A DNA stretch of 54,785 nt, filler included, from a bacterium (GTDB lineage Bacteria > JALSQH01): assembly GCA_026985515.1 (NCBI GenBank). It is 3 parts of 3 records of this genome, joined end to end, with 100 filler letters (N's around TTAATTAATTAA, not from the genome) between each part and the next. Parts side by side here need not be neighbours in the genome. Positions count along the whole stretch, not along the records: positions 1 to 15,456 come from JALSQH010000262.1; 2 more parts are not named here. One strand, written 5' to 3'. The stretch's first letter is position 1. Each line of letters opens with the position of its first letter. Position numbers and translations under genes: made by a program. This document shows, in pieces, positions 9,278-42,260 of the stretch. The notes under the pieces were generated by a model. That model saw only the letters and a program-made list of their open reading frames with translations, made no database searches and was not told the origin of the DNA.

Positions 9278-12200
9278 TTATCTTATGGGAGGGGCAAGTC
9301 CTTCAAATTTCACAAAATAGATTTTGTGCCCAGTAACGGAATATTCTCCAGATCCTATTATTGAATAGTAGAAAAAGTTTCCAGGATGCTGCGGATCTGG
9401 GGAAACGAAAGTATCTATAACAGTAGGTGAAAAACCTTTGTTATCCGCAACTATTTCTGGATGCTCGTAATTGGAAATGTCAAAAACAAACAACCCAATG
9501 GAACCAAGGGAAACAAAGAGATACTGAGCAGTTTTATCAATTGACTTGATAACAGCCCCCTGGGTCTGCTCCTGCTGATTCAGATAATCGTTTATATCAA
9601 TTTTGCTCAAAAGATAGGGTTGAGATGGATCGGAAATATTGTAAAGAAAAATTGTTTTTGAAGTGGCAGTTATCAACAGATCCCTCTGAATATAGTTGTC
9701 AACCACAGAACTATTCGCCGCTTCCCCTGACAGAAATGTCACAACTGGTGGAGCGCTGAGGGTGTAGGAAAGAATACTTCCTGAGATAGTGATCAAATTA
9801 CTGTTGTCCCTGGCCACATAGATGGGGGCATCCTGCCTCATACAGTAGGAATACCCACCAACTATGGAAGGATTCATCTCTGCTCCCAGTCTCTGATAGT
9901 AAAGTCGAGGGGAAGTGTTGCTGTCATCACAGAAGAATACAAAGTTTGAATTATCACCGGAAAGTTTTTTAATTTTTTTATCAGGTCCCCACTGATTCAA
10001 AAATACAGGTTTACGGAAGTTTCTGAAGTCGTATTCGTAAACTCCATAATTGTTTGAAGCAATGTAAAGATGGGAGCGGGAACGATCAAAATAGAGTCCG
10101 GTTGCTTCACCATCTATGTCAATATGGGAAACAACTTCCGGGTGAGATATGTCAGTTATATCAATCAGGTCAACACCACCATAACCCTTTGCTGCGAAAA
10201 CATAATTCTTACCAAAACTTTTAAATGACTGGAAAGCGAAGGGAATACCACCAATATTTATCTCTCTGCGAATATTATAACTACTGTCAATTACCGAGAG
10301 TCCTCTGTAATAATTTGATGCATACTTCATATCTGAGAAATCCTGCATATCAGTAAAATCATTTGCGGGACACTTTCCATTAGTGGAGTAACAATCTGAA
10401 ATGGGACCCGCATCTGTCCAGTTGTCAGTTTCCGCTACGAAAATTCTATTATCTGAATGCCAGTTTATATCAGGTGTGGCTGGTTGATAGGGATCAGACA
10501 CATTCAGAAATCTCAACTCATTTCCAGAGAATGTATATGCAATGGGCCATGCAACCCTTATGGGATCAATAAATAATCTATCCACAGAACCGAGATAATC
10601 TTTGTACTCTTTCACTCTACAGGAAGAAGGATCAGAAACAGGTTTGTTCAGACAATTACCATTTAAAAATAAAGGCCTGTCAGGTTCAGTGACATCTATT
10701 ATAAAAAGTGGAACACTATGGTGATCAGGAGGGTAGTTCTCACTGGCATTTATTCCAACGAAAAGGAGATCAGCCTTTTTATATGAGGCAGTATAATATG
10801 CCCATGGATCCCTCAGATAGAATAATGGATCAACCGCAACTCTCTTTTCATCAATGAGATGCCAGTACTCTCTCGGCACCTCAATACCATTTCTGTAAAG
10901 GATAAAATCCTCTGGAGAAGTAACATGGGCAACATACTGGATTCTGGCAATGTAGGAGTGATATTTATCACTGTAATTGAAATAGAGGGGTTCATCTTCA
11001 ACCTGTCCCCCTTTCAGCAGGAAAAGAGAATCTGCAATCCAGTAACTCATAAAAGGAGGTCCTCTGTAAGAATCATAGGGTCCCACAGTTATGAACCTTG
11101 GCTGGAAACAGCTGTAACCAGCTGGACAAATGGATGAATCTTTGACCGCGTAACATCTGGATCCCTGAGGGCATTTCGTCAGAATATCTTTCATACTCAC
11201 AATAACAAGGCCATATTTGTCCGCTGCAATAAAAAAATGTTTTTTAAAGTAAAGGGAATCAAGTATCCTGGAACAGAAGATATCCTGTACATTAAATGGA
11301 CATACTTTCACCTGTTTTACCACATCAAACAATCCTGACGATTTTTCAACACAATCCGGGATGCTGAAATTGGAAATATTCAGTGCTCCAACAACATTTC
11401 TCGCTGAGAACCAGGAAGCATAAACAAAACTCCTGCCGTTATAAAATCCGATGCCTGAGTGACCATGATAATTAAATGATCCCTGTGCATTTGTAAAGAG
11501 ATTGGTATCCTTTACCACAGGTGAAGTTATCCCGTTTTTGAAACTAACAGAAAGAGTTGTGTAAGGTTCTCCAGATTCACCACCTCCACCAGAGACAATA
11601 AGACATCTGTCTCTGTAAAACATTGATACTGCCCCACCTCTCTCTGTATAACTCAAAGGCACCCGGAATCTCTTGAGAAAATATATCGAGCCGGGATCCT
11701 CAGGATTATTCATATAGAAGACATCGATGTTACCATATGATTCACCTAAAAAAAGGAGGTAGTACTTTCCAAGACCGATTCCCTGGAATTCCGGCGGCAG
11801 AATGTTTCTATCATAAAAGGGGCCGGTTACCAGTACCGAATAGGCAAAGGAATCAAGGTCCATGTATCTGGAAACCATCACCGGTGATACATAGACTCTT
11901 ACCTTTGTCCTTCCAGTTACAGATGCGCCACTATCATCATATATTTTCACAATGATTGAAAACTCTCCCGGGCTTGTATAGGCCCAGGAAAGGTTGAGAT
12001 TGGATGGACGATTCTTGACATAATCCACCACCCCGTCGCCATTCATGTCATACTCTACTTTCTCAATTTCTCCATCGGGGTCATGAGCCGATAGATACAG
12101 CATGACGCTCAGCTTTCCATTTGAAAGTGAACCTTCCCGTGGAGAAACATAAAAGGAGTCAATCACCGGTGGCTTATTGCTGGTGACCTTTATAACTTTT

Positions 12201-12586
12201 TCCGGTGGAGTAGCAACAGTGCCCGTCTTCTTATCCTTGATCAGGGCCCTTAAGTTGTACTCTCCAGGCAACTTATATGTGTATGAAACATTCAAACATT
12301 CGCTTCCAGTGTAATCCCACTTCCCATCACCATTAAAATCGACATAATAGGCAAGATCTGTGAAACTTCTGTATTCCTCACCGGCAATCTTTCCAATGAG
12401 AGTAACCTTTACAGTGAGGGGTGCCTTACCCTCCAGGGGATCAACTGTAAAGGCAGTGATAAGAATCACTTCGTTTGAAACTGGCGGTGTTATACGTCCA
12501 TCATTATCTTCCCCTTTCTTTTTACAACCCGATGATATTGAAATTAAAGTTAGAAAAATAGCAAAAAGAAATGTTACTCTTTTCAT
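9278..12586 (-). CDS. Large lipoprotein with two PKD domains and LVIVD-repeat beta-propeller
   Basis: Lipobox ISSG-C. Two PKD repeats (DFNGDGKWDY..YTYKLPGEY; DMNGDGVVDY..YTSPGEF). LVIVD repeats (YVFAAKGYGGVDLIDITD..HP; YLFVSLGSIGLFVFDISN..HP). Cys-rich inserts. Confidence 0.85.
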   Translation of the reverse strand: MKRVTFLFAIFLTLISISSGCKKKGEDNDGRITPPVSNEVILITAFTVDPLEGKAPLTVKVTLIGKIAGEEYRSFTDLAYYVDFNGDGKWDYTGSECLNVSYTYKLPGEYNLRALIKDKKTGTVATPPEKVIKVTSNKPPVIDSFYVSPREGSLSNGKLSVMLYLSAHDPDGEIEKVEYDMNGDGVVDYVKNRPSNLNLSWAYTSPGEFSIIVKIYDDSGASVTGRTKVRVYVSPVMVSRYMDLDSFAYSVLVTGPFYDRNILPPEFQGIGLGKYYLLFLGESYGNIDVFYMNNPEDPGSIYFLKRFRVPLSYTERGGAVSMFYRDRCLIVSGGGGESGEPYTTLSVSFKNGITSPVVKDTNLFTNAQGSFNYHGHSGIGFYNGRSFVYASWFSARNVVGALNISNFSIPDCVEKSSGLFDVVKQVKVCPFNVQDIFCSRILDSLYFKKHFFIAADKYGLVIVSMKDILTKCPQGSRCYAVKDSSICPAGYSCFQPRFITVGPYDSYRGPPFMSYWIADSLFLLKGGQVEDEPLYFNYSDKYHSYIARIQYVAHVTSPEDFILYRNGIEVPREYWHLIDEKRVAVDPLFYLRDPWAYYTASYKKADLLFVGINASENYPPDHHSVPLFIIDVTEPDRPLFLNGNCLNKPVSDPSSCRVKEYKDYLGSVDRLFIDPIRVAWPIAYTFSGNELRFLNVSDPYQPATPDINWHSDNRIFVAETDNWTDAGPISDCYSTNGKCPANDFTDMQDFSDMKYASNYYRGLSVIDSSYNIRREINIGGIPFAFQSFKSFGKNYVFAAKGYGGVDLIDITDISHPEVVSHIDIDGEATGLYFDRSRSHLYIASNNYGVYEYDFRNFRKPVFLNQWGPDKKIKKLSGDNSNFVFFCDDSNTSPRLYYQRLGAEMNPSIVGGYSYCMRQDAPIYVARDNSNLITISGSILSYTLSAPPVVTFLSGEAANSSVVDNYIQRDLLITATSKTIFLYNISDPSQPYLLSKIDINDYLNQQEQTQGAVIKSIDKTAQYLFVSLGSIGLFVFDISNYEHPEIVADNKGFSPTVIDTFVSPDPQHPGNFFYYSIIGSGEYSVTGHKIYFVKFEGLAPPIR

Positions 12587-12633: not shown

Positions 12634-15456
12634 TCAATTTTTTATCTTTCTAAACAGTCCATAACCGGTAAGCCACAGGAAAGTAAGAAGAATTATTACT
12701 ATGTAACCTGCAGGATTTCCAGAGGTACAACCAAACCCCTCAGACCTGATCTCAAAAACCAGACCTTTCTCTGAAACATTTCCTGCCTCGTCACGGGCTC
12801 TGACAATTAATCTGTGAGTTCCGCTTTTTAAACCATCAAGAGGAATGATCCTTGAAGTTGTCCAGGGTGAAAAATCTCCATTATCTATCTTCCATGAAAT
12901 CGTTACATCAGACATATCTTCGGTACCAACAACGATAGAGTCACCATTTGAAAATACAGTTTCAGGATTAAGGAATGAAATTTCAGGTGGAGTTCTGTCC
13001 ACAATAAATTCAACCTTTGCAGGTGTGTAGTCCATCCATGTATACCCGGCATAGGATTGAATGGCTGCAACCTCAAGAGTGTGTTTTCCGTCAAGAAGTC
13101 CCTTTAAATTTACCGAAACCTCTTTTGTTTTGACGGGTGGATGCCATAATCCTCCATCCAGTCTGTATGTGTAAAGAAGATTATCTGGATCAACGAGTTT
13201 ACTTGAACCATTGTATTTGAATATCAATTCATCTTTGTTGGTCACAAATTTACTCACATATGAAGCTGGCAGAAATACCTCATCCCCCTGGGCACCGGGT
13301 ACCTCAATCGTTGTATCTGGATGCAAATCAGCCGGCGACGCACCGGAAAGAGAAAGATTACCCAGGAACTGAAAAATGTTAACATTACCGAGCAGAGTTA
13401 TATACAGACTGAACCACTTATTATCTGGTCCATCTGGACCAGAATAGTGAAGGTCAAAAGTTAATCCCGCCAGTCTGAATCTTGTTTCAACATAAAACTG
13501 AACATATGAGGACATGAGAACAGGAATCAAATTGGAAAATTGATCTTTCAACAGTGAAGTATTAACATCTATTTCAGATGATACCACTTCTATGGGGGTT
13601 ACTCCATAGCTGATAAGAGAGGGACTGTTTATCTCTCCGTAAAGCATTATATAGCCCGGGACATAATCTGGCAAATAATCGTAATTGGGATCACACTCAG
13701 GCTGTCCATAGTAGGGATCAAGGGGACTGCAACCTTTGTGAAATTCAAGATCAAATCCCGCTGTAAGGTTCCACCTCAACGTCATTATTCGTTTCTTGAC
13801 GTTATATTTATCAGTAAACCAGAACTCAAAATCAAGTGCGGGGAAATAAAAGGCAACATCAAATTTCCCGGTCATCCCCTGACCGGGCCCACTGGAATTG
13901 TTGTAGGTTCCAACTCCAACTGCAGCAGTGGGAGTAGCTCTCGGCACCATTTTGATTTCAACATATGAATTATCTTTTGCAAGTCTTCCCAGGACCGGTA
14001 TAAGATTCTTCCATACATCTACTTTTAGAAAATCTTTAAAAGGTGTTTCCTTACCATTTTCATCGTATGGAGTCATCTCAAACTCCACTATTCCTGCTGC
14101 AAAGGCTGCATAGAGGACCTGCTTGAGAAAGTTCTCATGGATTGAAAGAGCCATATCGTAATTGAATACATTTGATGAACCATCATCCTTAATCCCATTA
14201 TGATTGGCATCATACATTACTGTCCTGAAGCCTCCCCAGGTGTTTACTCCATACTTTATGAGAGTCAGACTACCAAGAGATGGAGGAGTCACATTGGGTG
14301 GAGGAACATCTGATTTGTCTATAAGCGGTGGACCAAAATCTGTGGGACCGGAATCATCATCAAACTGCTGGTCCTCGTCAACTCCATCGTTGTGATTGTA
14401 AAGTGCACAAATTCCAAAGAAATCTGTTGGTTCAGGATTATTTAAGTCAATATCCCTGGAGCAATCCGCATTAAACAGAATTGGTTCAGCTGCTGCGTTC
14501 AAACGAATATCCATTGCACAATTTGTGTATGTGGAAGGCTTCCACAATCCATTGGAGTCGTAAGTTCCATTTACTTCATGATACTGCGTACTTGAACTGT
14601 ATGAAGAATCCACCACATCAGGATTCTGACCGTAGAGACCAACATCTACCAGTCCCTTTCCTATTTTCCATGGATCACCCAGGAGATTATTCATATCAAT
14701 GGGTAGTGCACCAGCAAGTGCGCTTTTAAGGCTGTTATTCAGGATATTTTGAAATTTACTTTCTAATATAGGTTTTAACAAATTTAACAAATCATCAGTC
14801 AATGAACCCGGATCAATATTCAAATCAAATTTTGCATCTTTTAAATTACTTAATATCACATCAGTAACATTAATATCAACATCCAGAGCATCAGGATTAT
14901 AAATTCCATCATTTGAATTATCAAAGAAAAAGAATTTCATTGAGGCAACTATATCAAAATAATACCACTCTACAAAACCTCCTCCTCTACCGATTGTATC
15001 ACCCGCGTCTATGCCTAACTCCGCATAAACATCTGGAATACTGATCCTGAATACTATTGAATCTGCTGGAAAATCGCCACAATTGCCAGGCCCAGTACAA
15101 AACCCAAATTTTGTTATATCTGCACCATCCCAGACATTATGACAGGGAGAAGGTTTTGGATAATTATAACAACTTCTTCCGTTAGATTGCCTCGGACCAG
15201 GAAAAGTATAACCGCTGTGATAGGGAGGAGTGTGATGAAAATCCCTCAAAGTTTCATATGATCCATCAGCTTTTAATACAGTAGGACTATTAGTCCATGT
15301 AAAATATAAATGGGTCTCGTCCACATATACTGCCTGGTCATCACCAGGAAAGCAATAGTAGCCATCCGTATTATCTCCTCCTCCATGTTCATAATGAGAA
15401 GAACAATAACAACAGGAATAACCATAACAGCTTCCGCTACAATGACCCCTACAACT
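12634..15456 (-). CDS. Large surface protein: Cys-rich N-part, BPI/LBP(TULIP)-like core, two Ig-like domains, MYXO-CTERM/GC_trans_RRR-like anchor; 5'-truncated by contig end
   Basis: Frame is open to the contig edge (SCRGHCSGSCYGYSCCYC... precedes the track start at 15324). Ig-like YRLDGG..DGKHTLEVAA and DRTPPEI..GTHRLIVRARDEAGN. C-terminus GFGC-linker-TM-RKIK. Confidence 0.8.
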   Translation of the reverse strand, partial: SCRGHCSGSCYGYSCCYCSSHYEHGGGDNTDGYYCFPGDDQAVYVDETHLYFTWTNSPTVLKADGSYETLRDFHHTPPYHSGYTFPGPRQSNGRSCYNYPKPSPCHNVWDGADITKFGFCTGPGNCGDFPADSIVFRISIPDVYAELGIDAGDTIGRGGGFVEWYYFDIVASMKFFFFDNSNDGIYNPDALDVDINVTDVILSNLKDAKFDLNIDPGSLTDDLLNLLKPILESKFQNILNNSLKSALAGALPIDMNNLLGDPWKIGKGLVDVGLYGQNPDVVDSSYSSSTQYHEVNGTYDSNGLWKPSTYTNCAMDIRLNAAAEPILFNADCSRDIDLNNPEPTDFFGICALYNHNDGVDEDQQFDDDSGPTDFGPPLIDKSDVPPPNVTPPSLGSLTLIKYGVNTWGGFRTVMYDANHNGIKDDGSSNVFNYDMALSIHENFLKQVLYAAFAAGIVEFEMTPYDENGKETPFKDFLKVDVWKNLIPVLGRLAKDNSYVEIKMVPRATPTAAVGVGTYNNSSGPGQGMTGKFDVAFYFPALDFEFWFTDKYNVKKRIMTLRWNLTAGFDLEFHKGCSPLDPYYGQPECDPNYDYLPDYVPGYIMLYGEINSPSLISYGVTPIEVVSSEIDVNTSLLKDQFSNLIPVLMSSYVQFYVETRFRLAGLTFDLHYSGPDGPDNKWFSLYITLLGNVNIFQFLGNLSLSGASPADLHPDTTIEVPGAQGDEVFLPASYVSKFVTNKDELIFKYNGSSKLVDPDNLLYTYRLDGGLWHPPVKTKEVSVNLKGLLDGKHTLEVAAIQSYAGYTWMDYTPAKVEFIVDRTPPEISFLNPETVFSNGDSIVVGTEDMSDVTISWKIDNGDFSPWTTSRIIPLDGLKSGTHRLIVRARDEAGNVSEKGLVFEIRSEGFGCTSGNPAGYIVIILLTFLWLTGYGLFRKIKN

Positions 15457-15556
15457 NNNNNNNNNNNNNNNNNNNNNNNNNNNNNNNNNNNNNNNNNNNN
15501 TTAATTAATTAANNNNNNNNNNNNNNNNNNNNNNNNNNNNNNNNNNNNNNNNNNNN
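15457..15556. other. Artificial contig linker (N44-TTAATTAATTAA-N44)
   Basis: A six-frame stop spacer inside an N run; an identical copy sits at 38104-38203. Confidence 0.97.
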
Positions 15557-18519: not shown

Positions 18520-18615
18520 TTCTTACCCTCCAGAAAAGTTTTTACAATTATAACATTTTGAAAAATTTAATTCCAAAAGTAGAATAAATAATTAAACTGC
18601 ATGACGGAGGTGGAA

Positions 18616-20685
18616 ATGGAAAAACTATTTTACCCGGATAGCATTGTGGTATTCGGAGTTTCACCACGTGAAGGGAATCTTGGAAAAATCATTGTGGGGA
18701 ACCTTCTCAGATATGAATACCCGGGAAAAATCTACATGTACTCTCCCAGGGGAGGTGTAATTTATGGTCAGCAAATTATCAGCAATCTTGACGACATACC
18801 ACCGGGGGTGGATCTGGGAGTCATTATCACGCCGGCGCTCACCGTCCCACAGATCCTGGAAACCTGCGGGAAAAAGGGAATAAGAAGAGTTGTTATAGAA
18901 TCGGCAGGATTTGGAGAGTACTCAGAGGAGAGAAAAGCTCTCGAACAGGAACTGGTGGACATTGCAAAAAAGTATGGCATCAGATTTGTTGGGCCAAATG
19001 GTCTTGGAATAATCAACTTTGAAAAGGGAGTGGTTCTTCCATTTTCCCACTTCTTTCCTGAGAGAACAAAAACCGGTCCCATATCAATACTTTCACAGAG
19101 TGGTGGAATCGGAATTTCCTACATAGATCTTCTCTCCTTTGAAAACCTTGGAGTTAACAAATTTGTCAGCCTGGGGAATAAAACCAATATGGATGAAACA
19201 GATTTTCTGGAATACCTCAATGCTGATCCGAGTACAAAAATTATTGCCATGTACCTTGAGGGAATCAAAGATGGAAGAAGATTCATGGAGGTAGGGAAGC
19301 ATGTCAATAAACCTGTGATCGTTCACAAATCAAATATTGGTAAGTCGAGCCAGAATATTGCAAAATCCCACACAGCTTCTCTCGCCGTTGATGACAAGAT
19401 TGTTGATGCAGCCCTCAAGCAGCTGGGTTTTGTGAGAGTCCACACCCTCAACAACATGGTCAATGCAGCCAAAGTTTTCTCACTTCCTCCAATGAGGGGA
19501 AACAAAATTGCTATCATATCAAGGTCGGGGGGTCATGCAGTTGTTGCTGCAGATGCTGTGGACAGGTACGGATTTGAACTGGCAGAATTTTCTGAAAACT
19601 TTTTAAAAGAAATACAGAAGCACTTCAGAGCCAATGTCATCAATCCAACAAATCCCCTGGATCTGGGAGATATGTTTGATTTTGGATTATACGCAGCAAT
19701 TATTGAGCAAACTTTGAAGGAAACAAATATAGATGGACTTGTATTTCTACACATTTACTCATCAACCCAGGCAGAAATCTCAAGACCTCTCATTCCAAAG
19801 ATCAAATCACTCTCCGAGAAGTACAACAAGCCCATTGCAGTGGTTATCTTCAGTACTCAGGATGAGGTTGCAACTGTTAAGAAGATGTATGATTTCCCAA
19901 TCTTTGACGAACCGGGGGATGCGCTGAGGGCCCTGGCAATCAGCAGAGACTACCATCTCTACAGACCTGAATTTCTGGATATGAGAAATCCTGAAGAAAT
20001 TGACACCGAAAAGATAAAATCAATACTTGAAGGTAAAAAGAATCTTGATCTTGTGGAATCTCTGCAGGTTGTTGAGGCAGCAGGAATTCCTGTGGCTCCC
20101 TACGCCTTTGTCCCTGTGGGTGAGGATCCGGTGAAGTTCAAAAATGATCTTAATTATCCTCTTGCTATGAAAATCGTTTCTGAGGAAGGAATCCACAAAA
20201 CAGAAGTTGGGGGCGTTATCCTCAACATCAAGGATGATGAAATGCTTGTGGCAAGATATGAAGAAATCATAGAAAACGCAAAAAAATCTGGAGTCCCATT
20301 TAAAGGTGTTCTGCTTCAAGAGATGGTAAAGAGCAAGAGGGAGCTGATCATCGGAGCCAATGAGAATGAACTTTTTGGACATATTGTACTCTTTGGACTC
20401 GGCGGGATTATGGTGGAAGTTTTCAAAGATGTGAGTTTCGGGATTGTTCCCTTCGGAGAGACATGGGCTGACTTCATGATAAAAAATATAAAAGGTTACG
20501 ATATGCTGGAAGCCTTCAGGGATGAACCCAGAGCGGACATTGAAGCGATAAAAAGGAGCATCCTGAGAATTTCAAAACTTGTGGAAACCTTTCCTCAAAT
20601 AAAGGAGCTTGATATTAACCCAATTTTTGCTCTCCCTGAAGGAAAAGGAGTGGTGGCAGTTGACGCAAGGATAATTCTGGGATAA
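18616..20685 (+). CDS. ADP-forming acetate/acyl-CoA ligase family protein (fused alpha-beta)
   Basis: CoA-binding domain, GPNGLG, SQSGG, phospho-His SHTASLA, NPLDL, ATP-grasp HKTEVGGV, ELDINP, VDARI. ATG 18616 follows GGAGG. Confidence 0.92.
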   Translation: MEKLFYPDSIVVFGVSPREGNLGKIIVGNLLRYEYPGKIYMYSPRGGVIYGQQIISNLDDIPPGVDLGVIITPALTVPQILETCGKKGIRRVVIESAGFGEYSEERKALEQELVDIAKKYGIRFVGPNGLGIINFEKGVVLPFSHFFPERTKTGPISILSQSGGIGISYIDLLSFENLGVNKFVSLGNKTNMDETDFLEYLNADPSTKIIAMYLEGIKDGRRFMEVGKHVNKPVIVHKSNIGKSSQNIAKSHTASLAVDDKIVDAALKQLGFVRVHTLNNMVNAAKVFSLPPMRGNKIAIISRSGGHAVVAADAVDRYGFELAEFSENFLKEIQKHFRANVINPTNPLDLGDMFDFGLYAAIIEQTLKETNIDGLVFLHIYSSTQAEISRPLIPKIKSLSEKYNKPIAVVIFSTQDEVATVKKMYDFPIFDEPGDALRALAISRDYHLYRPEFLDMRNPEEIDTEKIKSILEGKKNLDLVESLQVVEAAGIPVAPYAFVPVGEDPVKFKNDLNYPLAMKIVSEEGIHKTEVGGVILNIKDDEMLVARYEEIIENAKKSGVPFKGVLLQEMVKSKRELIIGANENELFGHIVLFGLGGIMVEVFKDVSFGIVPFGETWADFMIKNIKGYDMLEAFRDEPRADIEAIKRSILRISKLVETFPQIKELDINPIFALPEGKGVVAVDARIILG

Positions 20686-20841: not shown

Positions 20842-20872
20842 AAAAACGGAGAAGGATAAATCCTTCTCCGTT
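20842..20872 (-). terminator. Intrinsic terminator of the ior-paaK-ACT operon
   Basis: 12-bp inverted repeat AACGGAGAAGGA-TAAA-TCCTTCTCCGTT with a T tract on the minus strand. Confidence 0.85.
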
Positions 20873-21302
20873 ACATATTCAGAAGTTCCTGGGAGGAAAT
20901 AAGAGTTACATTTGCCTTTTCAAGGACCTTTATTGCTGATTCCGGATCTTCAAATCTGAAAATTATAATTGCATCATCTTTATGTTTTGCAAGAAAGGCA
21001 TACATGTACTCAATGTTGATCCCGGCGTCCCTCAGGGGGACAAGAATTGAGTGAAGTCCACCCGGCTTATCAGGAACAACAACTGCCACAACATTATTTG
21101 TAGACACTGTTATCATCTTCTCCTTCAGCACTTTCTCAGCCTTATCTGGATCATCAACTATCAGTCTCAGGATTCCAAAGTCGCTTGTATCTGCAAGGGA
21201 AAGTGCCCTGATATTCACATTATTCTCTGCAAGGATTCCTGTTATTTCTTCAAGCCTCCCCGATCTATTCTCAAGGAATATTGACAACTGTTTTACAAGC
21301 AT
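20871..21302 (-). CDS. Tandem ACT-domain protein
   Basis: KQLSIFLENRSGRL, ALSLADTSDFGILRLIV, PDKPGGL, INIEYMYAF; the usual neighbour of paaK. Confidence 0.93.
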   Translation of the reverse strand: MLVKQLSIFLENRSGRLEEITGILAENNVNIRALSLADTSDFGILRLIVDDPDKAEKVLKEKMITVSTNNVVAVVVPDKPGGLHSILVPLRDAGINIEYMYAFLAKHKDDAIIIFRFEDPESAIKVLEKANVTLISSQELLNM

Positions 21303-21316
21303 ATCACTCTCCTTTT

Positions 21317-22615
21317 TTAAATTTTTCTCTTATCTATGACCCTCTTTGCCTTGCCCATGCTCCTCTCAATTGTTTTGGGCTCAACAAGTTTCACCTCTGC
21401 ACTTACACCTATGAGATCCTTAATATCATTCTCAATTTTCTTTGCCAGCCATTCAAGTTTCTTGATCTCGTCGGAGAAAATCTCCTCTGTTACCTCAATC
21501 TGTATCTCCATTGTGTCAAGAGCTCCCTTCCTGTCTACAATAATCAAATAGTGGGGGCTCAGGCCTTCATATTCAAGAAGGATATGCTCAATCTGGGATG
21601 GAAATACATTTACACCTCTGATAATCAGCATGTCGTCAGTTCTTCCTGTTACCCTTGCCATCCTCACAGTTGTTCTGCCACACTTACACGGTTCAGGGTT
21701 CAACCAGGAAATATCTCTGGTCCTGTATCTTATCAGCGGGAAAGCTTCCTTGGTCAGGGTGGTAAATACAAGTTCACCCTTCTCCCCATAGGGTAGAACC
21801 TCACCAGTTTCTGGATTTATGATTTCCACGAGGAAATGATTTTCAAAAACATGAAGACCCTCCTTTGCCTCAATACACTCACTGGCAACTCCAGGACCAA
21901 TTATTTCACTGAGGCCATAAATATCTATGGCGTCTATCCCCATTTTGGATTCTATTTCCCTCCTCATATTCTCAGACCATGGCTCTGCACCAAAAACTCC
22001 TACCCTGAGAGGTAATTCTTTAATGTCCACCCCCATCTCTTTTGCAACTTCGTAAATATTCAGGGAGTATGAAGGGGTACAGGCGAGCACAGTGGATCCA
22101 AAATCCTTCATCAACATGACCTGCTTCTGGGTGTTACCACCTGACATCGGAACCACAGTTGCTCCAAGCTTTTCCGCACCGTAATGTACGCCGAGACCTC
22201 CCGTAAAAAGACCGTAACCGTAGGCATTCTGTACTATATCCTTCTTCGTTACACCCGCTGCAGCAAGAGTACGTGCCATCACTTCAGCCCAGAGTTCAAT
22301 ATCGTTCTTTGTATAACCCACAACTGTTGGTTTACCTGTGGTTCCTGATGAAGCATGCACCCTCACAACATCTTCAAGATCAACTGCAAACATACCAAAA
22401 GGATAGTTATCCCTCAGGTCATCCTTGGTGGTAAACGGTAGCTTCTGGATGTCCTGCAGGTGCTTTATATCTTCCGGCTTCACCCCCGCTTCATCAAATT
22501 TCTTTCTGTAAAAAGGAACTCTGTTGTAAACCCATTCAACTATCTTTTTTAATCTTTCAAGTTGCAATTTTTCCAGTTCTTTCCTTGGTAATCTTTCTGC
22601 CTCGTTCCAGATCAA
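21317..22615 (-). CDS. paaK: Phenylacetate--CoA ligase
   Basis: [64 protein letters not shown] start follows AGGAGG. Confidence 0.95.
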
Positions 22616-22630
22616 GGTACCCTCCTTTCT

Positions 22631-23212
22631 TTAAAGTTCTATGAGTTCTCTTCCCCTTTCAAATGCCTTTAAGTTAAGTTCAAGAAACTGAGGTTTAACA
22701 CTTTTTCTGATTGCATTATAGTATGAAGACACTTCAAATGTCAAGAATCTGGAGAGCATACCCAGAAGAATGATATTTGTAACCCTTGGATTACCCAGTT
22801 TTACTGCTTCATTTGTTACCCTTTTTACGAAAACCTTTACATCTTTTTCTCCAAATTTTTCTTCAATCCCCTCCGGATACTTTTCAATTCCCATTGCAAC
22901 TCCGGGAGGTGGTAACCTGTAATCATTTATGAGAGCAGTTCCTCCATTTTTCACATACTCAATCCACCGCAACGATTCCATAAGCTCCATTGAAACAAGA
23001 ATGTCTCCCTTCCCCACGGGAATAAGAGGTGAAAAAATTTTTTCTCCAATTCTAACAAAGCTCACCACTGAACCACCCCTCTGAGCCATCCCATGAACTT
23101 CGCTTTTCTTAACATCCAGGTTATTCTCAAGGGCAAGATTGGCAAGAACATTACTTAAAAGTATGATTCCCTGTCCCCCAACTCCGGAAATTATGATGTT
23201 GACAGTTTCCAT
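22631..23212 (-). CDS. iorB: Indolepyruvate:ferredoxin oxidoreductase beta subunit
   Basis: GVGGQG, SEVHGMAQRGGSV, NLKAFERG. Confidence 0.95.
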   Translation of the reverse strand: METVNIIISGVGGQGIILLSNVLANLALENNLDVKKSEVHGMAQRGGSVVSFVRIGEKIFSPLIPVGKGDILVSMELMESLRWIEYVKNGGTALINDYRLPPPGVAMGIEKYPEGIEEKFGEKDVKVFVKRVTNEAVKLGNPRVTNIILLGMLSRFLTFEVSSYYNAIRKSVKPQFLELNLKAFERGRELIEL

Positions 23213-25047
23213 TATTCACTCCTCTCAGGAAAAATTATTGCATCAAAGGGACATGATTGTGCACAAACCTCACAACCTGTACAGTTCAACTGATCAATCA
23301 CCACATACCCTTTTCTCCTGTGTTTATTACCCTTTTTGTCAACCCAGTAACCTTCTTCCTCCACCCATGAGAGAGAGGGGCAATTTACATTGAGGCATAT
23401 CTTGCATCCAGAGCATTTTTCAGGATCAACAACCATTGGTTGCTTCTGGTAATTCTTTCTGTATTCAGGTAACAGAGCACAGGGTCCCTTGTGAATAATT
23501 ACAGAAAGCCCATCATAATTTTCTGCCTCATCAAGGGCCCTTGAAACACTTTCCATATCCCACGCATTGGTTTCAATGATATGCTTCACGCCAAAACTTT
23601 CCGCAAGGGATTTGAAATCAATCTCAAATGTTTGCTCTCCCATAAGAGTCACACCTGTTGCAGGGTTAACCTGTTGTCCGGTCATTGCAGTTGTTCTGTT
23701 GTCGAGGATTATTATTGTCCCCTTTGTTTTGTTATAAGCCATATTAAGGAGATGGGTCATACCACTGTGCATGAAGGTTGAATCACCAATAACTGAAACA
23801 ACCTTTTTTCTCTCCCCTTCAGGTAACACTTTGAACATACCGTGCCCATGTCCCAGACTTGCCCCCATATCAAGGGTGGTATGCATTGCAGATAAGGGTT
23901 TGTAATACCCAAGGGTGTAACATCCTATGTCACCTGTTACGAAATACTTTTTTCGGTTCAACTGGTAAAACATGCTTCTGTGTGGACAACCTGGACAGAG
24001 AATCGGCGGTCTGACAGGTAAATCGGGGGATCTCTTTAATTCAAGGGTTCCACATTCTGGTACATCACCATATCTAACAGCTCTGTAAACTATGTCGGGA
24101 TCAAGTTCCCCGCAGCGTGGAAATATCTCCTTACCAGTAACCTCTATTCCCATCTTTTTTATCTCATCCTCCCAGAAGGGATCAAGTTCCTCCACCACAT
24201 AGAGTTTTTTTACTCTGGAGGCAAATTCCTTTATCATCCTCTCCGGTAAAGGGTATGACATACCAAGTTTGAGAAATGAGGCATCGGGGAAGGCCTCCTT
24301 TGCATACATGTAGCTTACGCCACCTGTGATAAATCCGATCTCCTCGCTACCCCACTCTATCCTGTTTATTTCAATGTTTTCAGCAAGTTCCCTCAACTCC
24401 CTAAGTCTCTTTTCCACAACAGGATGCCTTTTTCTTGCATTGGAGGGAAGCATGGTCCATTTTTCCGCATTCTCCTTCCTTGCCCTCAATTCCCTTACCG
24501 GTGATACGGGATCTTCAAGGGTAACCACACTGAATCCGTGGGAAATTCTGGTGGTGGTTCTGATAAGAACAGGTGTATCATATTTTTCACTAAGGAAAAA
24601 GGCGAGTCTGGTAAACTCCTTTGCCTCCTGACTGTCAGATGGTTCAAGCATGGGAATTTTTGCAAATTTTGCATAGTGTCTGTTGTCCTGCTCATTCTGG
24701 GAACTGTGCATATGTGGATCATCCGCAGTAACAATTACAAGTCCCCCTACAATTCCGGTGTATGGAAGCGTCATGAGAGGATCAGCAGCGACATTCAACC
24801 CCACATGCTTCATCGCCACAAGGGATCTGGCCCCTGCATAGGAGGCACCTGCAGCAGATTCAAGTGCCACTTTCTCATTTATACTCCACTCAGCATAAAT
24901 GGAATCACCATACTTCTCAGCAATGGTCTCCAGAATCTCGGTGGAGGGTGTTCCGGGATATGCCGCTGCAAATTGACAGCCTGTCTCATAGGCTCCCCTC
25001 GCAATGGCCTGATTTCCCGAAAGGACTTCTTTCCCTTTTGCAGCCAC
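23212..25047 (-). CDS. iorA: Indolepyruvate:ferredoxin oxidoreductase alpha subunit
   Basis: YPGTPSTEI, MKHVGLNVAAD, SSQNEQD, CPGCPH, GDIGCY, IGDSTF, C-terminal ferredoxin-type Cys motifs. Confidence 0.96.
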   Translation of the reverse strand: MAAKGKEVLSGNQAIARGAYETGCQFAAAYPGTPSTEILETIAEKYGDSIYAEWSINEKVALESAAGASYAGARSLVAMKHVGLNVAADPLMTLPYTGIVGGLVIVTADDPHMHSSQNEQDNRHYAKFAKIPMLEPSDSQEAKEFTRLAFFLSEKYDTPVLIRTTTRISHGFSVVTLEDPVSPVRELRARKENAEKWTMLPSNARKRHPVVEKRLRELRELAENIEINRIEWGSEEIGFITGGVSYMYAKEAFPDASFLKLGMSYPLPERMIKEFASRVKKLYVVEELDPFWEDEIKKMGIEVTGKEIFPRCGELDPDIVYRAVRYGDVPECGTLELKRSPDLPVRPPILCPGCPHRSMFYQLNRKKYFVTGDIGCYTLGYYKPLSAMHTTLDMGASLGHGHGMFKVLPEGERKKVVSVIGDSTFMHSGMTHLLNMAYNKTKGTIIILDNRTTAMTGQQVNPATGVTLMGEQTFEIDFKSLAESFGVKHIIETNAWDMESVSRALDEAENYDGLSVIIHKGPCALLPEYRKNYQKQPMVVDPEKCSGCKICLNVNCPSLSWVEEEGYWVDKKGNKHRRKGYVVIDQLNCTGCEVCAQSCPFDAIIFPERSE

Positions 25048-27798: not shown

Positions 27799-28717
27799 CT
27801 CCTATCCCCCTTTTTCTGTCTCTCCATGCCCAGAAGGTTGCCACACTCAATCCTGCAATAATGTGCCATACCCCCCACCACGCTGCTACGAGTGCCATCC
27901 CTCCAAGACCATGAAAGAAAGTGAAGATCAATACAAGACCAAGTGCGGAATTCTGAATCCCTACTTCAATTGACACAGCCCTTGAGTCCCTGTCGTCCAG
28001 ACCGGCAATTTTTGCTGCAAGATAACCGGTTATGAGAGCAGTGGCATTATGGATAAAAACAACAATTGCAACATAACCAACATACTTCAGAAAATATTGC
28101 CAGTTAGCCTTTATGGCAATAACAACGAAAAGGATAAACACGATTATTGAACCAATTTTGAAGGGCCTCTTTGCCTTTGCGGCAAAATCGGGATACCTTC
28201 TTCCAACATAAATATCGAGGGTGAGAGGGATACCAAGGATCAATACTATGGTCATGAACATCTGCAGAGGATCAACACTTACTGCATGGTAGATGGGTGC
28301 TGTCCTGTGATTGAGGGTTCCCCAGAAAAAGAGATTGAATGGGGTCATCACAACGGCAAATGCTGTGGATATGGCTGTCATTGTAATGGATAGAGATACG
28401 TTCCCCCGGGCAAGATATGTGATAAAGTTTGAAATATTTCCGCCTGGACAGGCAGCTACAAGAATCATTCCAAGAGCGATGCTGGGGCGAGGATTGATTA
28501 TGAGGGTAAGCAGATAAGTAAAGGCAGGAAGAAGAATGAACTGACCTGTCAGGCCAATTAACGGAGCCTTTGGCTTTCTGAAAACATCAACAAAGTCTGA
28601 AACTTTTATGTCAAGGGCTATCCCGAACATGATTATTCCCAGTATGACATTCAGCAAAACAAGACTTTGAGGACTGAAATTCAGCCTGAGCTGATCGACA
28701 CTGGAAGAGATATCCAT
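27791..28717 (-). CDS. Bile acid:sodium symporter (BASS) family transporter
   Basis: MFGIAL, QFILLP, CPGGNISN, GNVSLS, IEVGIQNS, WWGVWH. Confidence 0.93.
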   Translation of the reverse strand: MDISSSVDQLRLNFSPQSLVLLNVILGIIMFGIALDIKVSDFVDVFRKPKAPLIGLTGQFILLPAFTYLLTLIINPRPSIALGMILVAACPGGNISNFITYLARGNVSLSITMTAISTAFAVVMTPFNLFFWGTLNHRTAPIYHAVSVDPLQMFMTIVLILGIPLTLDIYVGRRYPDFAAKAKRPFKIGSIIVFILFVVIAIKANWQYFLKYVGYVAIVVFIHNATALITGYLAAKIAGLDDRDSRAVSIEVGIQNSALGLVLIFTFFHGLGGMALVAAWWGVWHIIAGLSVATFWAWRDRKRGIGVE

Positions 28718-30440
28718 TAACCCTGTGGCTCCTCATGCATCATTTTGAAAGCCATCAATCCGGGTGGCCACTTGTGTTCTACTGGATCAACATCCACATG
28801 AATAACTGCACACCTGCCACTTTCAACGGCGTCTTTCAGAGCCTTTCTGAAATCATCCACATTATCCACCCTGACCCCAAAGGCTCCCATGCTTTCAGCC
28901 AGTTTATCCCACTTTATTTCTGAAAAATCTGTGTTTATCAGCTTTTCCTCAGGCAGTTTTCTCTTCATCATGGTGGTATTTTGATCAAGCATCATCTCCT
29001 GTGTCAGCTTGGCCATACCCCACTGTCTATCAGATACAACTATGAAAATCGGCTTAAGACCATTTCTCACAGCAGTTTCTATCTCCTGAGGATGGAAACC
29101 CATTGCTCCATCACCAATTATGCAAAAAACTCTTCTATCTGGAGCAGCTATTGAAGCACCCAGGGTCTGACCAACTCCCGCACCAAGCATTCCGAACTTA
29201 AAAGTCGTTATGAGAGTATTGGGCTCATTATGGCGGTATCACCACCATCAACAACACAAATCGCATCATCACCAAAGAACTCCCTCGCTACCTTCGGTAT
29301 AAAAGCTGTAATCATGGGCTTCTTACTTCTGTTTTCTTCACTCAATTTTTCATCATACAGTTTTCTTCCCTGCTCTTTCATTTTGACAAGCTCATCTATC
29401 CTTGCCTCTCTGGAATTTCTGTCAATCTGGTCCTTTCTCTTTTCCACTTCCTCAATCAGCATTTCAAGAAAGAGCTTTATGTCTCCAAGAATATTGAGCT
29501 CAGCTGGCCTGTTTAATCCCAGGATAGAATCGTCAACATCCACTCTTATCATTTTCTGAGTGGAGGGATCTCCCCACATTGGAACCTTGCCCCAGAAATC
29601 TGTTTCACCCAGTCTTGAACCCAGCACAAGCACAAGATCAGATTCTGTCTTCACCTTCAAAACCACATCCACATAAGGTAGTGGAACAGCATATCTGCTG
29701 TCATCAGGGATTGAACCTCTGGCTCACCAGCTCGTTGTAACTGGTGACGAGAGTAACTCTGCAAGCTTTTTCAATTCCATAAATGCCCTCGCATGAACCA
29801 CTCCCGTTCCAGCATGAATAAGAGGCTTTTCAGAATTTACCAGCATATCTGCTGCTTCCCTTACAAGATCAGGAGGCGGGTAGATCCTGTGAATTCTTCT
29901 GTACTGATGGGGTTCCCAGAGGGGTGGTTCTTCAACCTCGGCATTCATAAAATTTTCAGGAATATCAATATGAACCACCCCGGGTCTCCCCTTCCACACT
30001 TCCCTCAGCGCCTTCATGACAATTTCAGGAATTCGCTCCAGAGAATTTACCGAGGCACTCCACTTTACAACGTTCTTAATCGTGTCAACCTGGTTGAAAT
30101 ACTGATATGCACCACCTATGTCTGGATCTGTAATCTGCGGTCTTCTTTTGCTTGTGATGAGAAGAACCCTGTTCCCCTCTGCATTTTCAACAGTTATACC
30201 TGGTAGAATATTTGCAACACCTGGACCATTAGATGCCATACATACACCAATTTTTCCCGTAACCCTGTAATAGGCACCAGCCATGTGGGCTGCCATTGAT
30301 TCATGCCTCGGGGAAATCAGCCTGATACCATACTTCTTAAGAGTTGAGTAAAATCCGAAGTAGGTTCCATCAATTATGCCAAAGACATACTCCACACCCT
30401 CCCTGGCAAGAATTTTTGAAATTATTTCTCCACCATACAT
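28717..30440 (-). pseudogene. TPP-dependent enzyme (acetolactate synthase/2-hydroxyacyl-CoA lyase superfamily), disrupted
   Basis: Three track ORFs form one gene: RHE..AAHMA, GPGVAN, GRPGVVHIDIP, middle domain, GDGAMGF. In-frame TGA at 29724-29726 (TTSW*ARG) and a frameshift near 29229 (DGGDTAI / NEPNTLITTFKFGMLGAG). Confidence 0.9.
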
Positions 30441-38103: not shown

Positions 38104-38203
38104 NNNNNNNNNNNNNNNNNNNNNNNNNNNNNNNNNNNNNNNNNNNNTTAATTAATTAANNNNNNNNNNNNNNNNNNNNNNNNNNNNNNNNNNNNNNNNN
38201 NNN
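38104..38203. other. Artificial contig linker (N44-TTAATTAATTAA-N44)
   Basis: Identical to 15457-15556. Confidence 0.97.
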
Positions 38204-41200
38204 CCCTCCTTCGATACCTGCTGTGATATATCAGAATCAGATCACAAATCAGGTTGATTATGTTTTGAAGAGGAGCGGAGGAAGTGTTGATAGCAATTTC
38301 CTTTTGTGGGAATGTCAGGGTGGAGACAGGGCAGATTTTGTACCATGTGGAGGAAGTGAGTCCACCACAGATTTTTATTACAGGTTGCTTACGGGAACTC
38401 CCCAGAGAATAAACATGCTACGATTAAGAGCAGTGGATAAAGCTGGAAACACAGGAGATTCTGCCATTGTTCAGATAATTTATGATTCAACTCCGCCCAC
38501 AAGACCGCTTTTGGGTCATAGAGGAAGTAGAATCTTTGTTAATACTGATAGTTACCTTGTTGAAATAACCACACCTTCCAGTGATGTGAATTTTGATCTT
38601 TACCAGTACTGTGTTGAGGATGGAGATACTTCTTACTGCCCTGATTCAGATTTTGTCAATTCTTCTCAGTCTCTTGAGATACCCGTTCCTCTTGAACCTG
38701 ATAAGGTAGTGAGTGTGTTCATAAGGGGAAAGGATAAGGCGGGTAATGTGTCTCAATATGATAGAGTTGTCATAGAGCAGGATTCAGATCCACCATCGGC
38801 CCCACAGCTTCTGTTAAACGAGGTGTATGTAAATGCGATTTCTATACCTGTTTTCCTCTCAAGAGGGTCTGTTGATCCTTCTTTGGCTGATCCGGGAGAG
38901 GATAATTTTGATCACTATGAAGTTTATGGAGGATTAAACTGCAAAACAGGGGACGTTTATAACAACGATTCAATAGGAAGGAATGAAGGTCTCTGGGTAT
39001 GCCTTTTCAGAGAGGGAGGGATCCCCCTGCTGAAAAATGGAGAAGTGGATGTGGAGATATATGCTGTGGATAAAGCGGGAAACAGGAGTTATCCTGCTTT
39101 GTTGAGAATATTTGCCAGAAATTCGGAACCTGTTTTTACTGATTCAAATTTATCGGATCTTATTACAATTGCTTCTCACGGAATTTTTTACAGGAAATAC
39201 AGTGACAGCAAGGTCTTTTTTTACAATTTTGATGATGAGAAAATTTATTCAGATGATATTTACAGCAGGTTCGCAAATTGCTCTGAAGGTACTGATTACC
39301 TGTATGTTGAGAGTCTGAAATCAATTACAAACTATGATGGTAATGAAATTTTGCTGGGGTCTGGAGGAGGTCTGTTGCCAAATTTTCTTCTTGCAGACAA
39401 GTTTGAAATGAGTGATAATAGCTGGAGTTCCTATTCATATCTCTTCCCTACAGAGGAAAGGATTGCAACACTTGCTACCAATCAGGGTGGGGTTGCCTGG
39501 GTGACTACTGGAAAAGGTATAATTATGGCGCCATCGGTAACTTCTTCTACTTTCTATAATGTTGATAAGTGGAGATGCTATTTCAATTATTATCGTGTCA
39601 CATCTGAAACACAAATATATGGTTTTTATCAGCTGGTAAATCTCAGCAGGGAATCCACAGATGGTCTTTACGGAATGTATGGGAATGTTTATGGTGATAG
39701 TGCCTATGTGAGCCTTATACCTCTCAGCTGTCTGGGGACCGGTTACGGGGAAAATGGTTTTATGGAGAAAACATGGGTCATGGTTCCTGTTGATGCGAGA
39801 GTTCAGTTTGGTACGGTGTTTGTTGCTGGTATCTGTACTGATGGAAATAATAGATTATCCTGGAAAACTCTATCCAGAGATGATAACTTTCCTGGAGTTG
39901 TGACAATGCCAGATATGGAATTGATCGGTTCTTCTGAATCATATAATCCTGCTATTACTGAGGACAATCATGAAATAGCGCATATTTCCGTTGATGATAG
40001 CAGGGCATACAGTCAGATTCTTCTCCTTCAGAAACATAAGGTTGCAGATTACATAAACCTTTACTACGCTCCTGAATCTATCAAGGATTTTACGCAATCA
40101 GAAAGATCTTATAATACCTATAAGACTCCTTTTACACCTGGCGAGGTAAGGGAGATCCTTGAGATTCCTGAAGTAATCAATGGTTACGAAAGATTATTTT
40201 TCGACAGCGACTCCTACACCGGAACCGACAGGTTGAGAGGTATTGAAATTTCATTTAACAGTAGCTATAAGATTTCTGCTATACGTGCTTATCTGAAGTG
40301 CAGCGGCAATACTACAATACGGGGAGCCATCTATAAGGAGACATCTTCAGATACTTATTCCCGTATAGCATCCACCTCCACGGTAAATTCATTTACAAGT
40401 GATTTTTTTGAGTATGTTCTTCGTTTTGACGAGCCTGTACATGTTGATAGTGATGCTCCTTATCTCATTGTGTTTCAGTGGCGGGGTGATAGTTGCGAAT
40501 ATTATGCAGGGGGCAACAATCCTATTGAAAGGCCATATGGAGTTGTTGAGAGACGGGTAATGGTTAACAATGTTTCTGAAGTTCCGTTGACAATAAGTAG
40601 CAGCAGTATTCAAACTGGATATTTTTATGAAATAGGCTTTGACATCAGTGAGGGAGGCGACATAATCAAAGATCCCGGCCGCATTCTGGATCTTTCTGGA
40701 AGATATCTTTTCCTTGCAACTTCCTTTGATTCATCAAATCCACTGACTTATTCAACCCTGAGAGTTATTGATCTGGGGGAAAATTTCCTTTATGACTCTT
40801 CCGATAGGCAGTGCATAATCCAGAGCGGAGACGGGATTGAGTTCGGTATCCTTGATGCTACCGGAAAAAGTTTTACATATGTTTATACCACCAATGATGG
40901 AACCATCAGACATGTCTTTTATGATTTTGGCAGTGATGGAATTCCCTGTACAGGCGATGATGAGAAGATTACCACAGATATTTCCCGATGGGTTGATTCG
41001 GAAAGGATATATCCCTCTCTTTCAATGATAGCTTCAATGGAACCCGATGTCGTCTCTCTGAGGACCGGGATTTACTGGTATGACCTGGCAAAGGTGAAGG
41101 ATTACGGTGATAACTGGTATGGAAATATTCAGCCTGAAAAAAAGAGTGAAAACGGATTTGCCGGGGATTCTTATCTTCTCGGGGATATACCTTTCGTACT

Positions 41201-42260
41201 CCAGGAAAATTATGGGAACGAAAATTATACTATTTACAGAGAAAATCCAGAAATTTTCTATCCATTTGGATCAACTTCTGTAGATAATGGTTTTAAGATA
41301 TCGAGCAACGGCGATTATGTGGTGGTAACAGGTTTTGATTATTATAATAACCTTATTCAGGGCAGCACGCTATATGTTTTCGATAGAATCACAGGAAAAT
41401 ATATTGGAGGAATAAAAAGCGAAGACTCCTTTTTTGTCTCTGTTCCTGCTGGTAATGAGGTTTTTATTAATGCAAATTTCACTAATTTTACTCAAGGACA
41501 ACAAAAGTATCTCATGTATGATATTCACACAGGCAATCTTTTTGAACCTTCAAACATTTCTGGTGGGTACAAACTAAAGTGGGGCGATTACGAATTTTTA
41601 ATCTCTAATTTCAATGTACCATCAGGTACAAGGTTTCTTTTCAGCAGTTATGAGAATGACAGGTATGTTGTTCACATTTATGACCTGGGGGATGATGGAA
41701 TACATGTTGATGAAGGTTCTGGCGATGATAGAGAAGACTGGATCGATCCATTTCCTTTTGAAATGAGTGTTACAACTCCTGTTGGATTTTATCTTACAGA
41801 TACTTACTTCGCTGTTGAGGTAACAGAAGCGGACTTTGTACATGATGTTTTATATGGAAAATTGGGAAGTACCCAGATTAAAAGTATACACGATATTGAT
41901 GTTTTCCTGGGTATTTCTGGTGAAGACATGTATTACATCGCTGATAGCTATTTGCACAGGAGAAATCTATCCTCTGATGATGATAGGATAATGAGAGTTG
42001 CTTATATACATGACTTCTTTCCATACAATGTGGGCAGGAAAGGTGACTGGATATTTTTTGCATCTGACGACAATATCTTTGGAATAACTGCTATTAATCT
42101 TTTTTCTAATGAGGAAATTCCCATATTTGCAGGTAACAACCTTCCACCTTTTACGGGAAGTGTTTATCCTGGAAAATTTATTGAACCTGATGGTAATGGT
42201 TTTATGTTCAGTCTACAGAATGGCAAAAGGATTCTCATGAGGTATGAGATTGGCAGATAG
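38204..42260 (+). CDS. Very large extracellular protein with Ig-like (DKAGN) repeats and beta-rich C-terminal region; 5'-truncated by contig start
   Basis: Frame is open from 38205 (PPSIPA). Three DxxPP..DKAGN Ig-like units, a DUF4082-like segment and repeated D(L/F)GxDG...DD loops. Confidence 0.8.

Follow-up and report, generated by a model that had tools for sequence, protein, structure and literature searches.

Does a bacterial surface protein built on an immunoglobulin (Ig)-like stalk carry the two-barrel lipid-binding fold of BPI, LBP and CETP? The question is raised by a partial coding sequence at 12634..15456 on the minus strand of a 54,785-nucleotide stretch of bacterial DNA (the window; assembly GCA_026985515.1), for which an original prediction, made from the sequence alone, had proposed such a protein. 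The sequence observation is confirmed, and the structural interpretation is supported by predicted models, in which a core of ~700 residues adopts the BPI/LBP/CETP two-barrel (double-TULIP) fold. HMMER does not place the protein in the Pfam BPI families PF01273 and PF02886. It represents a divergent and rare family, invisible to Pfam, of double-TULIP proteins that have large inserts and a surface anchor; the family is new and not a surprise, because bacterial BPI-like proteins are already known.

The coding sequence comprises 940 codons and a stop, and its 5′ end is open at a contig boundary; residues are numbered here 1-940, from nucleotide 15456 down to 12637. The gene caller places the open reading frame (ORF) at 12634..15324 (minus strand; 896 aa), with a GTG start at 15324, and the frame remains open upstream to nucleotide 15456, the final base before a run of N at 15457..15556. 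This run marks a scaffold join and contains, at 15501-15512, the six-frame stop linker TTAATTAATTAA, of which another copy lies at 38148-38159, again within an N run. N runs with such linkers indicate that the window is made of three artificially joined contigs, so that gene order across the joins is uninformative on synteny. An ORF that is open up to a contig boundary implies a 5′-truncated gene. The extent of the loss can be gauged from the full-length relative P0005 (1124 aa, 76% identity, 100% coverage): residue 184 of P0005 pairs with residue 1 of the window copy, which is thus without about 183 N-terminal residues. The window carries the 3′ ~84% of the gene; judged against P0005, the portion lost at the join holds the signal peptide, the first strand, helix A and part of an insert.

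Structures of the window protein and of P0005 were predicted with AlphaFold2, without templates, from a 17-sequence alignment. In the P0005 model, the chain opens with a signal helix, a strand (57-64) followed by helix A (65-76), a low-confidence Cys-rich insert (77-293), long strands (296-387) and a helix (399-429). It goes on with central strands and a second insert, and then with a strand (614-623) and helix (624-636), long strands (683-811), a helix (817-832) and further strands (836-874); two β-sandwiches (898-1087) and a helix (1100-1123) complete the chain. The models thus display what defines a double-TULIP protein: two barrels that meet in a central sheet, each with a strand and helix A ahead of a long, twisted antiparallel sheet and with helix B at its end. 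The window model has the same topology minus the first strand and helix A.

In the window product, residues 1-112 (15121..15456; this and all following parts of the gene are on the minus strand) are the remainder of the Cys-rich insert between helix A and the N-barrel sheet, with nine Cys and a predicted local distance difference test score (pLDDT) of <50. The N-terminal TULIP barrel (residues 113-248; 14713..15120) has long twisted strands at 113-120, 133-150, 157-178, 190-202 and 205-210, and helix B at 217-248. An inter-barrel region (residues 249-431; 14164..14712) contributes the central-sheet strands 263-276 and 319-325 together with a low-confidence, acidic, Cys-containing insert. The C-terminal TULIP barrel (residues 432-693; 13378..14163) consists of strand 432-440, helix A′ (441-453), long strands within 500-573 and 602-627, helix B′ (634-648) and strands within 652-689. 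It is the best-modelled region, with pLDDT ~75-87 (75-87 over residues 433-590); the N sheet reaches 60-80, and the inserts are poor. The stalk comprises two Ig/FN3/PKD-like β-sandwich domains (residues 709-905; 12742..13332), and the chain ends in a tripartite sorting tail (residues 906-940; 12637..12741).

Several points of the original prediction can be located on this layout. The peptides that it quoted lie where it had placed them in the minus-strand translation: YDMALSIHENF... starts at residue 433 (nucleotide 14160), and ...VPRATPTAAV ends at residue 513 (~nucleotide 13918). The first of these was read as the start of the C barrel, and the model puts strand 432-440 and helix 441-453 exactly there. 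The proposed range of the lipid-binding core, 13380-14960, corresponds to residues ~166-693, and the structural alignment with BPI stops at model residue 693. β-Strands running into a long amphipathic helix had also been described; strands 133-150, 157-178, 190-202 and 205-210 do run into helix 217-248, within which the helix peptide LTDDLLNLLKPILESKF (LTDDLLNLL...) begins at residue 219; the amphipathicity of this helix is the part of the claim that a hydrophobic-moment test did not show. The Ig stalk is borne out by the two domains of the predicted structure. An acidic loop, DANHNGIKDD (residues 416-425; 14182-14211), directly precedes the C barrel; it has low model confidence, several of its positions are invariant across six close relatives (alignment A3), and it resembles calcium-binding loops of the DxNxNG type.

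Comparison of the models with known structures brings out BPI. For the window model, Foldseek against the PDB ranks BPI 1ewf first (E 7.8e-9 over 628 columns), with 1bp1 at 2.6e-7, LBP 4m4d at 2.2e-6 and CETP 2obd at 5e-6; on this level, the two-barrel TULIP core foreseen in the original prediction is upheld. For the P0005 model, the top four matches are BPI (2e-11 and 4.2e-11) and LBP (1.7e-9 and 6.6e-9), and CETP ranks seventh. A search independent of Foldseek, over 48,161 chains, placed CETP and BPI at ranks 1 and 2 for P0005, and the same pair at ranks 3 and 4 when the window model was the query; of the 50 rows in each list, these two alone lie on the core, the other 48 being Ig/FN3/PKD matches to the stalk. 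The structural match covers the whole BPI chain in the same order, over 403-423 residues. BPI residues 1-28 are paired in P0005 and unpaired in the window model, which fits the 5′ truncation.

At the sequence level the profile searches were negative. Searched against Pfam and NCBIfam, the window protein gave only sub-threshold Ig, PKD, Big_13 and OmpL47 matches near its C terminus, and neither PF01273 nor PF02886 at E<=1. Fourteen relatives searched against Pfam likewise lacked both families at E<=0.01, and showed Ig/PKD-type matches and, in P0040, Ricin-B. The original prediction had named the absence of a significant profile match as grounds for refuting it; none to Pfam LBP_BPI_CETP or LBP_BPI_CETP_C was found by HMMER, and so these grounds formally apply. 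An alignment-free language-model search, the matches of which count as leads only, related residues 425-700 to PF02886 clusters at 0.91 (18 of 30 matches), beneath a top match at 0.95 to an unnamed bacterial cluster with Myxococcota as its commonest phylum; residues 100-735 gave 0.84 and 0.81.

The relatives that delineate the family are few. Three word-based searches yielded five, five and nine proteins; besides P0005, these include P0006 (1203 aa, 43% identity), P0007 (850 aa, partial, 45%), P0008 (1250 aa, 38%) and P0155 (1237 aa, 39%). P0156-P0161, new in the third search, were set aside as having only 2-15% query coverage and Ig-type Pfam domains. For P0006 and P0008 the longest contig has the same length (25,779 bp); they may be paralogues on one contig, in which case a genome could carry the family in two copies. 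Of the 1095 proteins that an exhaustive HMMER search of 1.84 billion representatives returned at E<=1e-3, the best 150 nearly all match only the Ig-like domains (residues ~735-905), and a local phmmer test with residues 1-740 found a match to the core in 14 of these 150. The match of P0015 is limited to residues 664-731. The core-matching proteins of 1450-2040 aa include P0017, P0021, P0026, P0028, P0032, P0037, P0040 and P0051; common to these long relatives are helix B (residues ~216-280) and the C barrel (~405-720), at 24-29% identity. The 17-sequence alignment also includes P0046 and P0076, neither of which had a core match in the phmmer test; P0046 is without the Cys tail as well. Scans for related loci in genome contigs (with the window core and alignment A3) and in metagenome contigs gave no match.

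All full-length members start with a signal peptide, and within about 40-90 residues of the start they have the conserved strand and helix A motif that is absent from the truncated window copy. What follows helix A varies greatly: the length of the segment up to the N sheet ranges from about 220 residues (P0005) to about 825 (P0040), with P0017 and P0021 in between at about 450. In P0040, a Ricin_B domain (E 5.4e-30; best stretch 675-765) lies between helix A, which ends at 103, and the N sheet, which starts at 928. This variable segment, with its Ricin-B domain in P0040, suggests a swappable recognition head far from the anchor.

The anchor itself is read from the tail sequence, which has the three expected parts: a G-F-G-C motif, a hydrophobic stretch (helix 916-939 in the model) and a basic end, RKIKN. 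Cys910 (nucleotides 12727-12729) is invariant in the 17-sequence alignment A1. Among the tails of relatives, five of nine pass the MYXO-CTERM profile TIGR03901 (20.2-26.0 bits; cut-off 20); P0040 scores 17.9 bits, and P0005, P0006 and P0008, which among the relatives tested are nearest to the window protein, give no match. The surface tether of the original prediction is thereby supported, in that Cys910, helix 916-939 and the basic tail are positionally homologous to the above-cut-off MYXO-CTERM tails of relatives. MYXO-CTERM proteins are described as substrates of a CPBP-type myxosortase that cuts the tag, after which the conserved Cys attaches the protein at the cell surface; the same accounts report these systems from Myxococcota and Bradymonadales (PMC11980579; bioRxiv 10.1101/2023.06.07.544157). 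No match to the CPBP-type protease family was found among the scanned ORFs of the window.

What might such a protein do? It is probably a secreted, cell-surface-anchored double-TULIP protein, the core of which would serve as a lipid-binding or lipid-transfer module of the kind found in CETP or in TipA of Bdellovibrio. Export would proceed through the N-terminal signal peptide, as in the full-length relatives; a CPBP-type, 'myxosortase'-like protease would cut the C-terminal tag, and the conserved Cys would keep the protein on the outer face of the cell. The Ig stalk would hold the tubular module clear of the surface, and contact with the target would be made by the variable Cys-rich head, which sits at the distal end of the N barrel and in one relative contains a Ricin-B lectin. 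From membranes or particles outside the cell, the hydrophobic tubes could pick up lipids or similar hydrophobic compounds, and could shuttle them to or from the cell's own outer leaflet. As to the type of cargo, the grip of BPI on lipopolysaccharide (LPS) depends on a strongly cationic N-terminal domain. The cationic, lipid A-binding N-terminal domain of the LPS binders BPI and LBP was not found here: in the N barrel (residues 113-248), acidic residues (D+E 21) outnumber basic ones (K+R 9; the missing N-terminal ~183 residues are outside this count), and every other segment of the protein is likewise net acidic. With an acidic N barrel, a carrier of phospholipids or neutral lipids, of the CETP or TipA kind, is likelier than a BPI-type cationic protein that binds LPS.

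A number of results weigh against this reading. The window copy is without the first strand and helix A of its N barrel. The models are of moderate confidence only, with a mean pLDDT of 59.9 and a predicted template modelling score (pTM) of 0.46 for the window protein, and 58.4 and 0.50 for P0005; since both derive from one shallow 17-sequence alignment, they are not independent. Scanned at E<=10, PF01273 matched none of the 17 members, and PF02886 matched one, at E 0.29. A phmmer search of the PDB returned lactate dehydrogenases as its best match (E 0.45), which is put down to chance, and a profile search of the PDB matched PKD and Ig chains only. Alignment of the N half of the family with its C half by hhalign was not significant (E 0.26); its top local alignment pairs the two strand and helix A motifs. 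Hydrophobic moments of helices and strands were not significant, and in particular that of helix 217-248 (muH 0.18) was matched by 34% of 2000 shuffles, so that amphipathicity is not shown. The window tail, finally, has no TIGR03901 match, its best profile being JDVT-CTERM with 16.2 bits against a cut-off of 27. The core might be some other β-rich fold, one that 17 sequences were too few for AlphaFold2 to resolve. Such a modelling artefact appears very improbable, as the barrels are the best-modelled parts of the protein, the match spans the entire BPI chain in order, and it was obtained in the absence of templates, was also found without Foldseek and is echoed by the alignment-free language-model search.

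Other alternatives accept the fold and differ as to its use. The protein might be a weapon or sensor of the BPI type: by binding LPS on foreign Gram-negative cells, it would recognise their outer membrane or make it permeable, which is the LPS capture or prey recognition proposed in the original prediction. BPI comes out at or near the top of the structural matches, one relative has a lectin head, and MYXO-CTERM systems occur in Myxococcota and Bradymonadales, which are predatory lineages; TipA, from the predator Bdellovibrio, is moreover described in its preprint as binding and destabilising bilayers. Set against these points, the acidic N barrel and the equally acidic remainder of the protein differ from cationic BPI, and the metabolism genes of the window resemble those of an anaerobic fermenter, so that this use appears improbable. 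Much the same can be said of an adhesin or structural surface protein, in which the TULIP-like scaffold would have no lipid cargo and would only hold the Cys-rich or lectin head at a distance, as a rigid spacer. Such a role would suit a core flanked by Ig/PKD domains and a Cys-rich module, the Ricin-B lectin of P0040, and a neighbouring gene for another large PKD surface lipoprotein; however, both barrels with their helices A and B have been kept over the large distances that separate the 1450-2040-aa relatives, and the characterised double-TULIPs are all described as binding lipids (bioRxiv 10.1101/2025.09.09.675085). Within the preferred reading of a surface-anchored lipid carrier, a more specific and rather unlikely version is a tethered 'lipid-harvesting arm': a BPI-like tube held ~20 nm out on the Ig stalk, with a swappable head (Cys-rich in most members, a Ricin-B lectin in one) that would dock on the envelopes of other cells or on lipid particles and allow contact-dependent extraction of lipids. 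If true, the family would be the surface-bound equivalent of TipA, which is secreted; it would serve predation, scavenging or outer-membrane exchange, and would be shared by Myxococcota-type organisms and an unrelated anaerobe of low G+C content.

The closest neighbour in the window is a co-oriented gene 47 nt downstream (9278..12586, minus strand), a possible operon partner; no terminator-like site was found in the 47-nt gap. It encodes a predicted lipoprotein of 1102 aa with a lipobox (...SSGC), two PKD domains and weak LVIVD/propeller-like and FG-GAP-like signals. Residues 437-507 of this lipoprotein gave an odd phmmer match in the PDB to phycobilisome linker proteins (E 1e-4). The other genes of the same contig are of a housekeeping nature: LigA, TrpRS, ScpAB, an ECF sigma factor with an anti-sigma factor, and M48 and M50 peptidases.

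On the remaining two contigs are the acyl-CoA dehydrogenases and CoA ligases that the original prediction had cited as lipid catabolism genes of the organism; these are indeed present, but not on the contig of the double-TULIP gene. At 20871-25047 (minus strand) lies a cluster resembling indolepyruvate/2-oxoacid:ferredoxin oxidoreductases (TPP, POR and 4Fe-4S domains), with an AMP-binding enzyme of the phenylacetate-CoA-ligase type and an ACT-domain protein, and an ADP-forming acyl-CoA synthetase is encoded at 18601-20685. Together, the cluster and the synthetase suggest an anaerobe that ferments amino acids. A thiamine-diphosphate enzyme at 28717-30440 (minus strand) is spread over three consecutive ORFs: the first has the N domain and the beginning of the middle domain, the second has what remains of the middle domain, and the third has the C domain. 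A frameshift in the gene, a fault in the assembly or a genuine split of the enzyme could each account for this. Directly after the second join begins an ORF of 1345 aa (38223-42260, plus strand), which for that reason is probably 5′-truncated. It has no Pfam match at E<=1e-5, and its N-terminal part repeats '...DKAGN...PP' motifs, as do the Ig-like domains of the double-TULIP protein; it is probably another large surface protein.

A BPI-like fold in bacteria is no longer news, and the statement in the original prediction that such proteins are known mainly from eukaryotes is outdated, bacterial double-TULIPs having been published as DUF4403, as AlphaFold-database clusters and as TipA. The interest of the present family lies elsewhere. 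Little is understood of how bacteria acquire or pass on lipids outside the cell, and the family would contribute a form that is anchored at the cell surface and has a modular recognition head. It also indicates that BPI-like proteins exist beyond the reach of Pfam, which matters for annotation: all members found are unnamed or 'hypothetical'. The family is a tractable candidate for assays of lipid binding and transfer.

Among known systems, the eukaryotic double-TULIP lipid carriers, namely human BPI (1bp1, 1ewf), LBP (4m4d) and CETP (2obd), all covered by PF01273 and PF02886, are the structural reference. The window family differs from them in having no Pfam-level match and an identity of 8-13% in structural alignments, and its core is larger (about 820 residues against about 456), because of the ~220-residue Cys-rich insert after helix A and an insert of ~100-150 residues between the barrels. 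It further adds two Ig domains and a membrane-sorting tail, and its N barrel is acidic.

To our knowledge, TipA is the only bacterial BPI-like protein solved so far. This B. bacteriovorus protein (bd2538) is reported as a crystallised BPI-like double-TULIP that binds bilayers and holds lipids in its lumen, and the same preprint mentions bacterial double-TULIPs fused to β-rich, helical and enzyme domains (bioRxiv 10.1101/2025.09.09.675085). Compared by description only, TipA is soluble, of about 570 residues and homodimeric, and it works with a small β-sandwich adaptor, TipB, encoded by an adjacent gene, whereas the window protein is tethered at its C terminus, has large inserts and neighbours the 1102-aa PKD lipoprotein. 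No TipB-like small β-sandwich gene was found on the downstream side, which the lipoprotein gene occupies, and on the upstream side the contig ends within the gene itself; TipA is absent among the listed PDB matches.

For the tail, the nearest parallel is Myxococcus xanthus TraA, described as a MYXO-CTERM protein processed by the myxosortase MrtX (PMC11980579), with which the window protein shares a tripartite tag made up of an invariant Cys, a membrane helix and a basic cluster. Compared with MYXO-CTERM proteins, the window tail has only one Cys, its end is rich in Lys and not in Arg, and it belongs to a genome of 41% G+C. No paper joining MYXO-CTERM with TULIP or BPI was found in the library searched; Haft table S1 and figure EV2 of the TipA preprint might show members.

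Closest in the manner of their recognition are the bacterial TULIPs of earlier surveys. In 2019, P47, OrfX2 and YceB were discussed together with a predicted full-length BPI homologue, DUF4403 (Levine 2019, PMC6791001), and in 2023 clustering of the AlphaFold database revealed bacterial BPI look-alikes (Barrio-Hernandez 2023, PMC10584675). As described there, DUF4403 and the AlphaFold-database BPI cluster are, like the window family, bacterial pseudo-dimeric TULIPs recognised by remote homology or predicted structure. They are compact and detectable through Pfam or the AlphaFold database, whereas the window family has no Pfam match and adds inserts, a stalk and an anchor.

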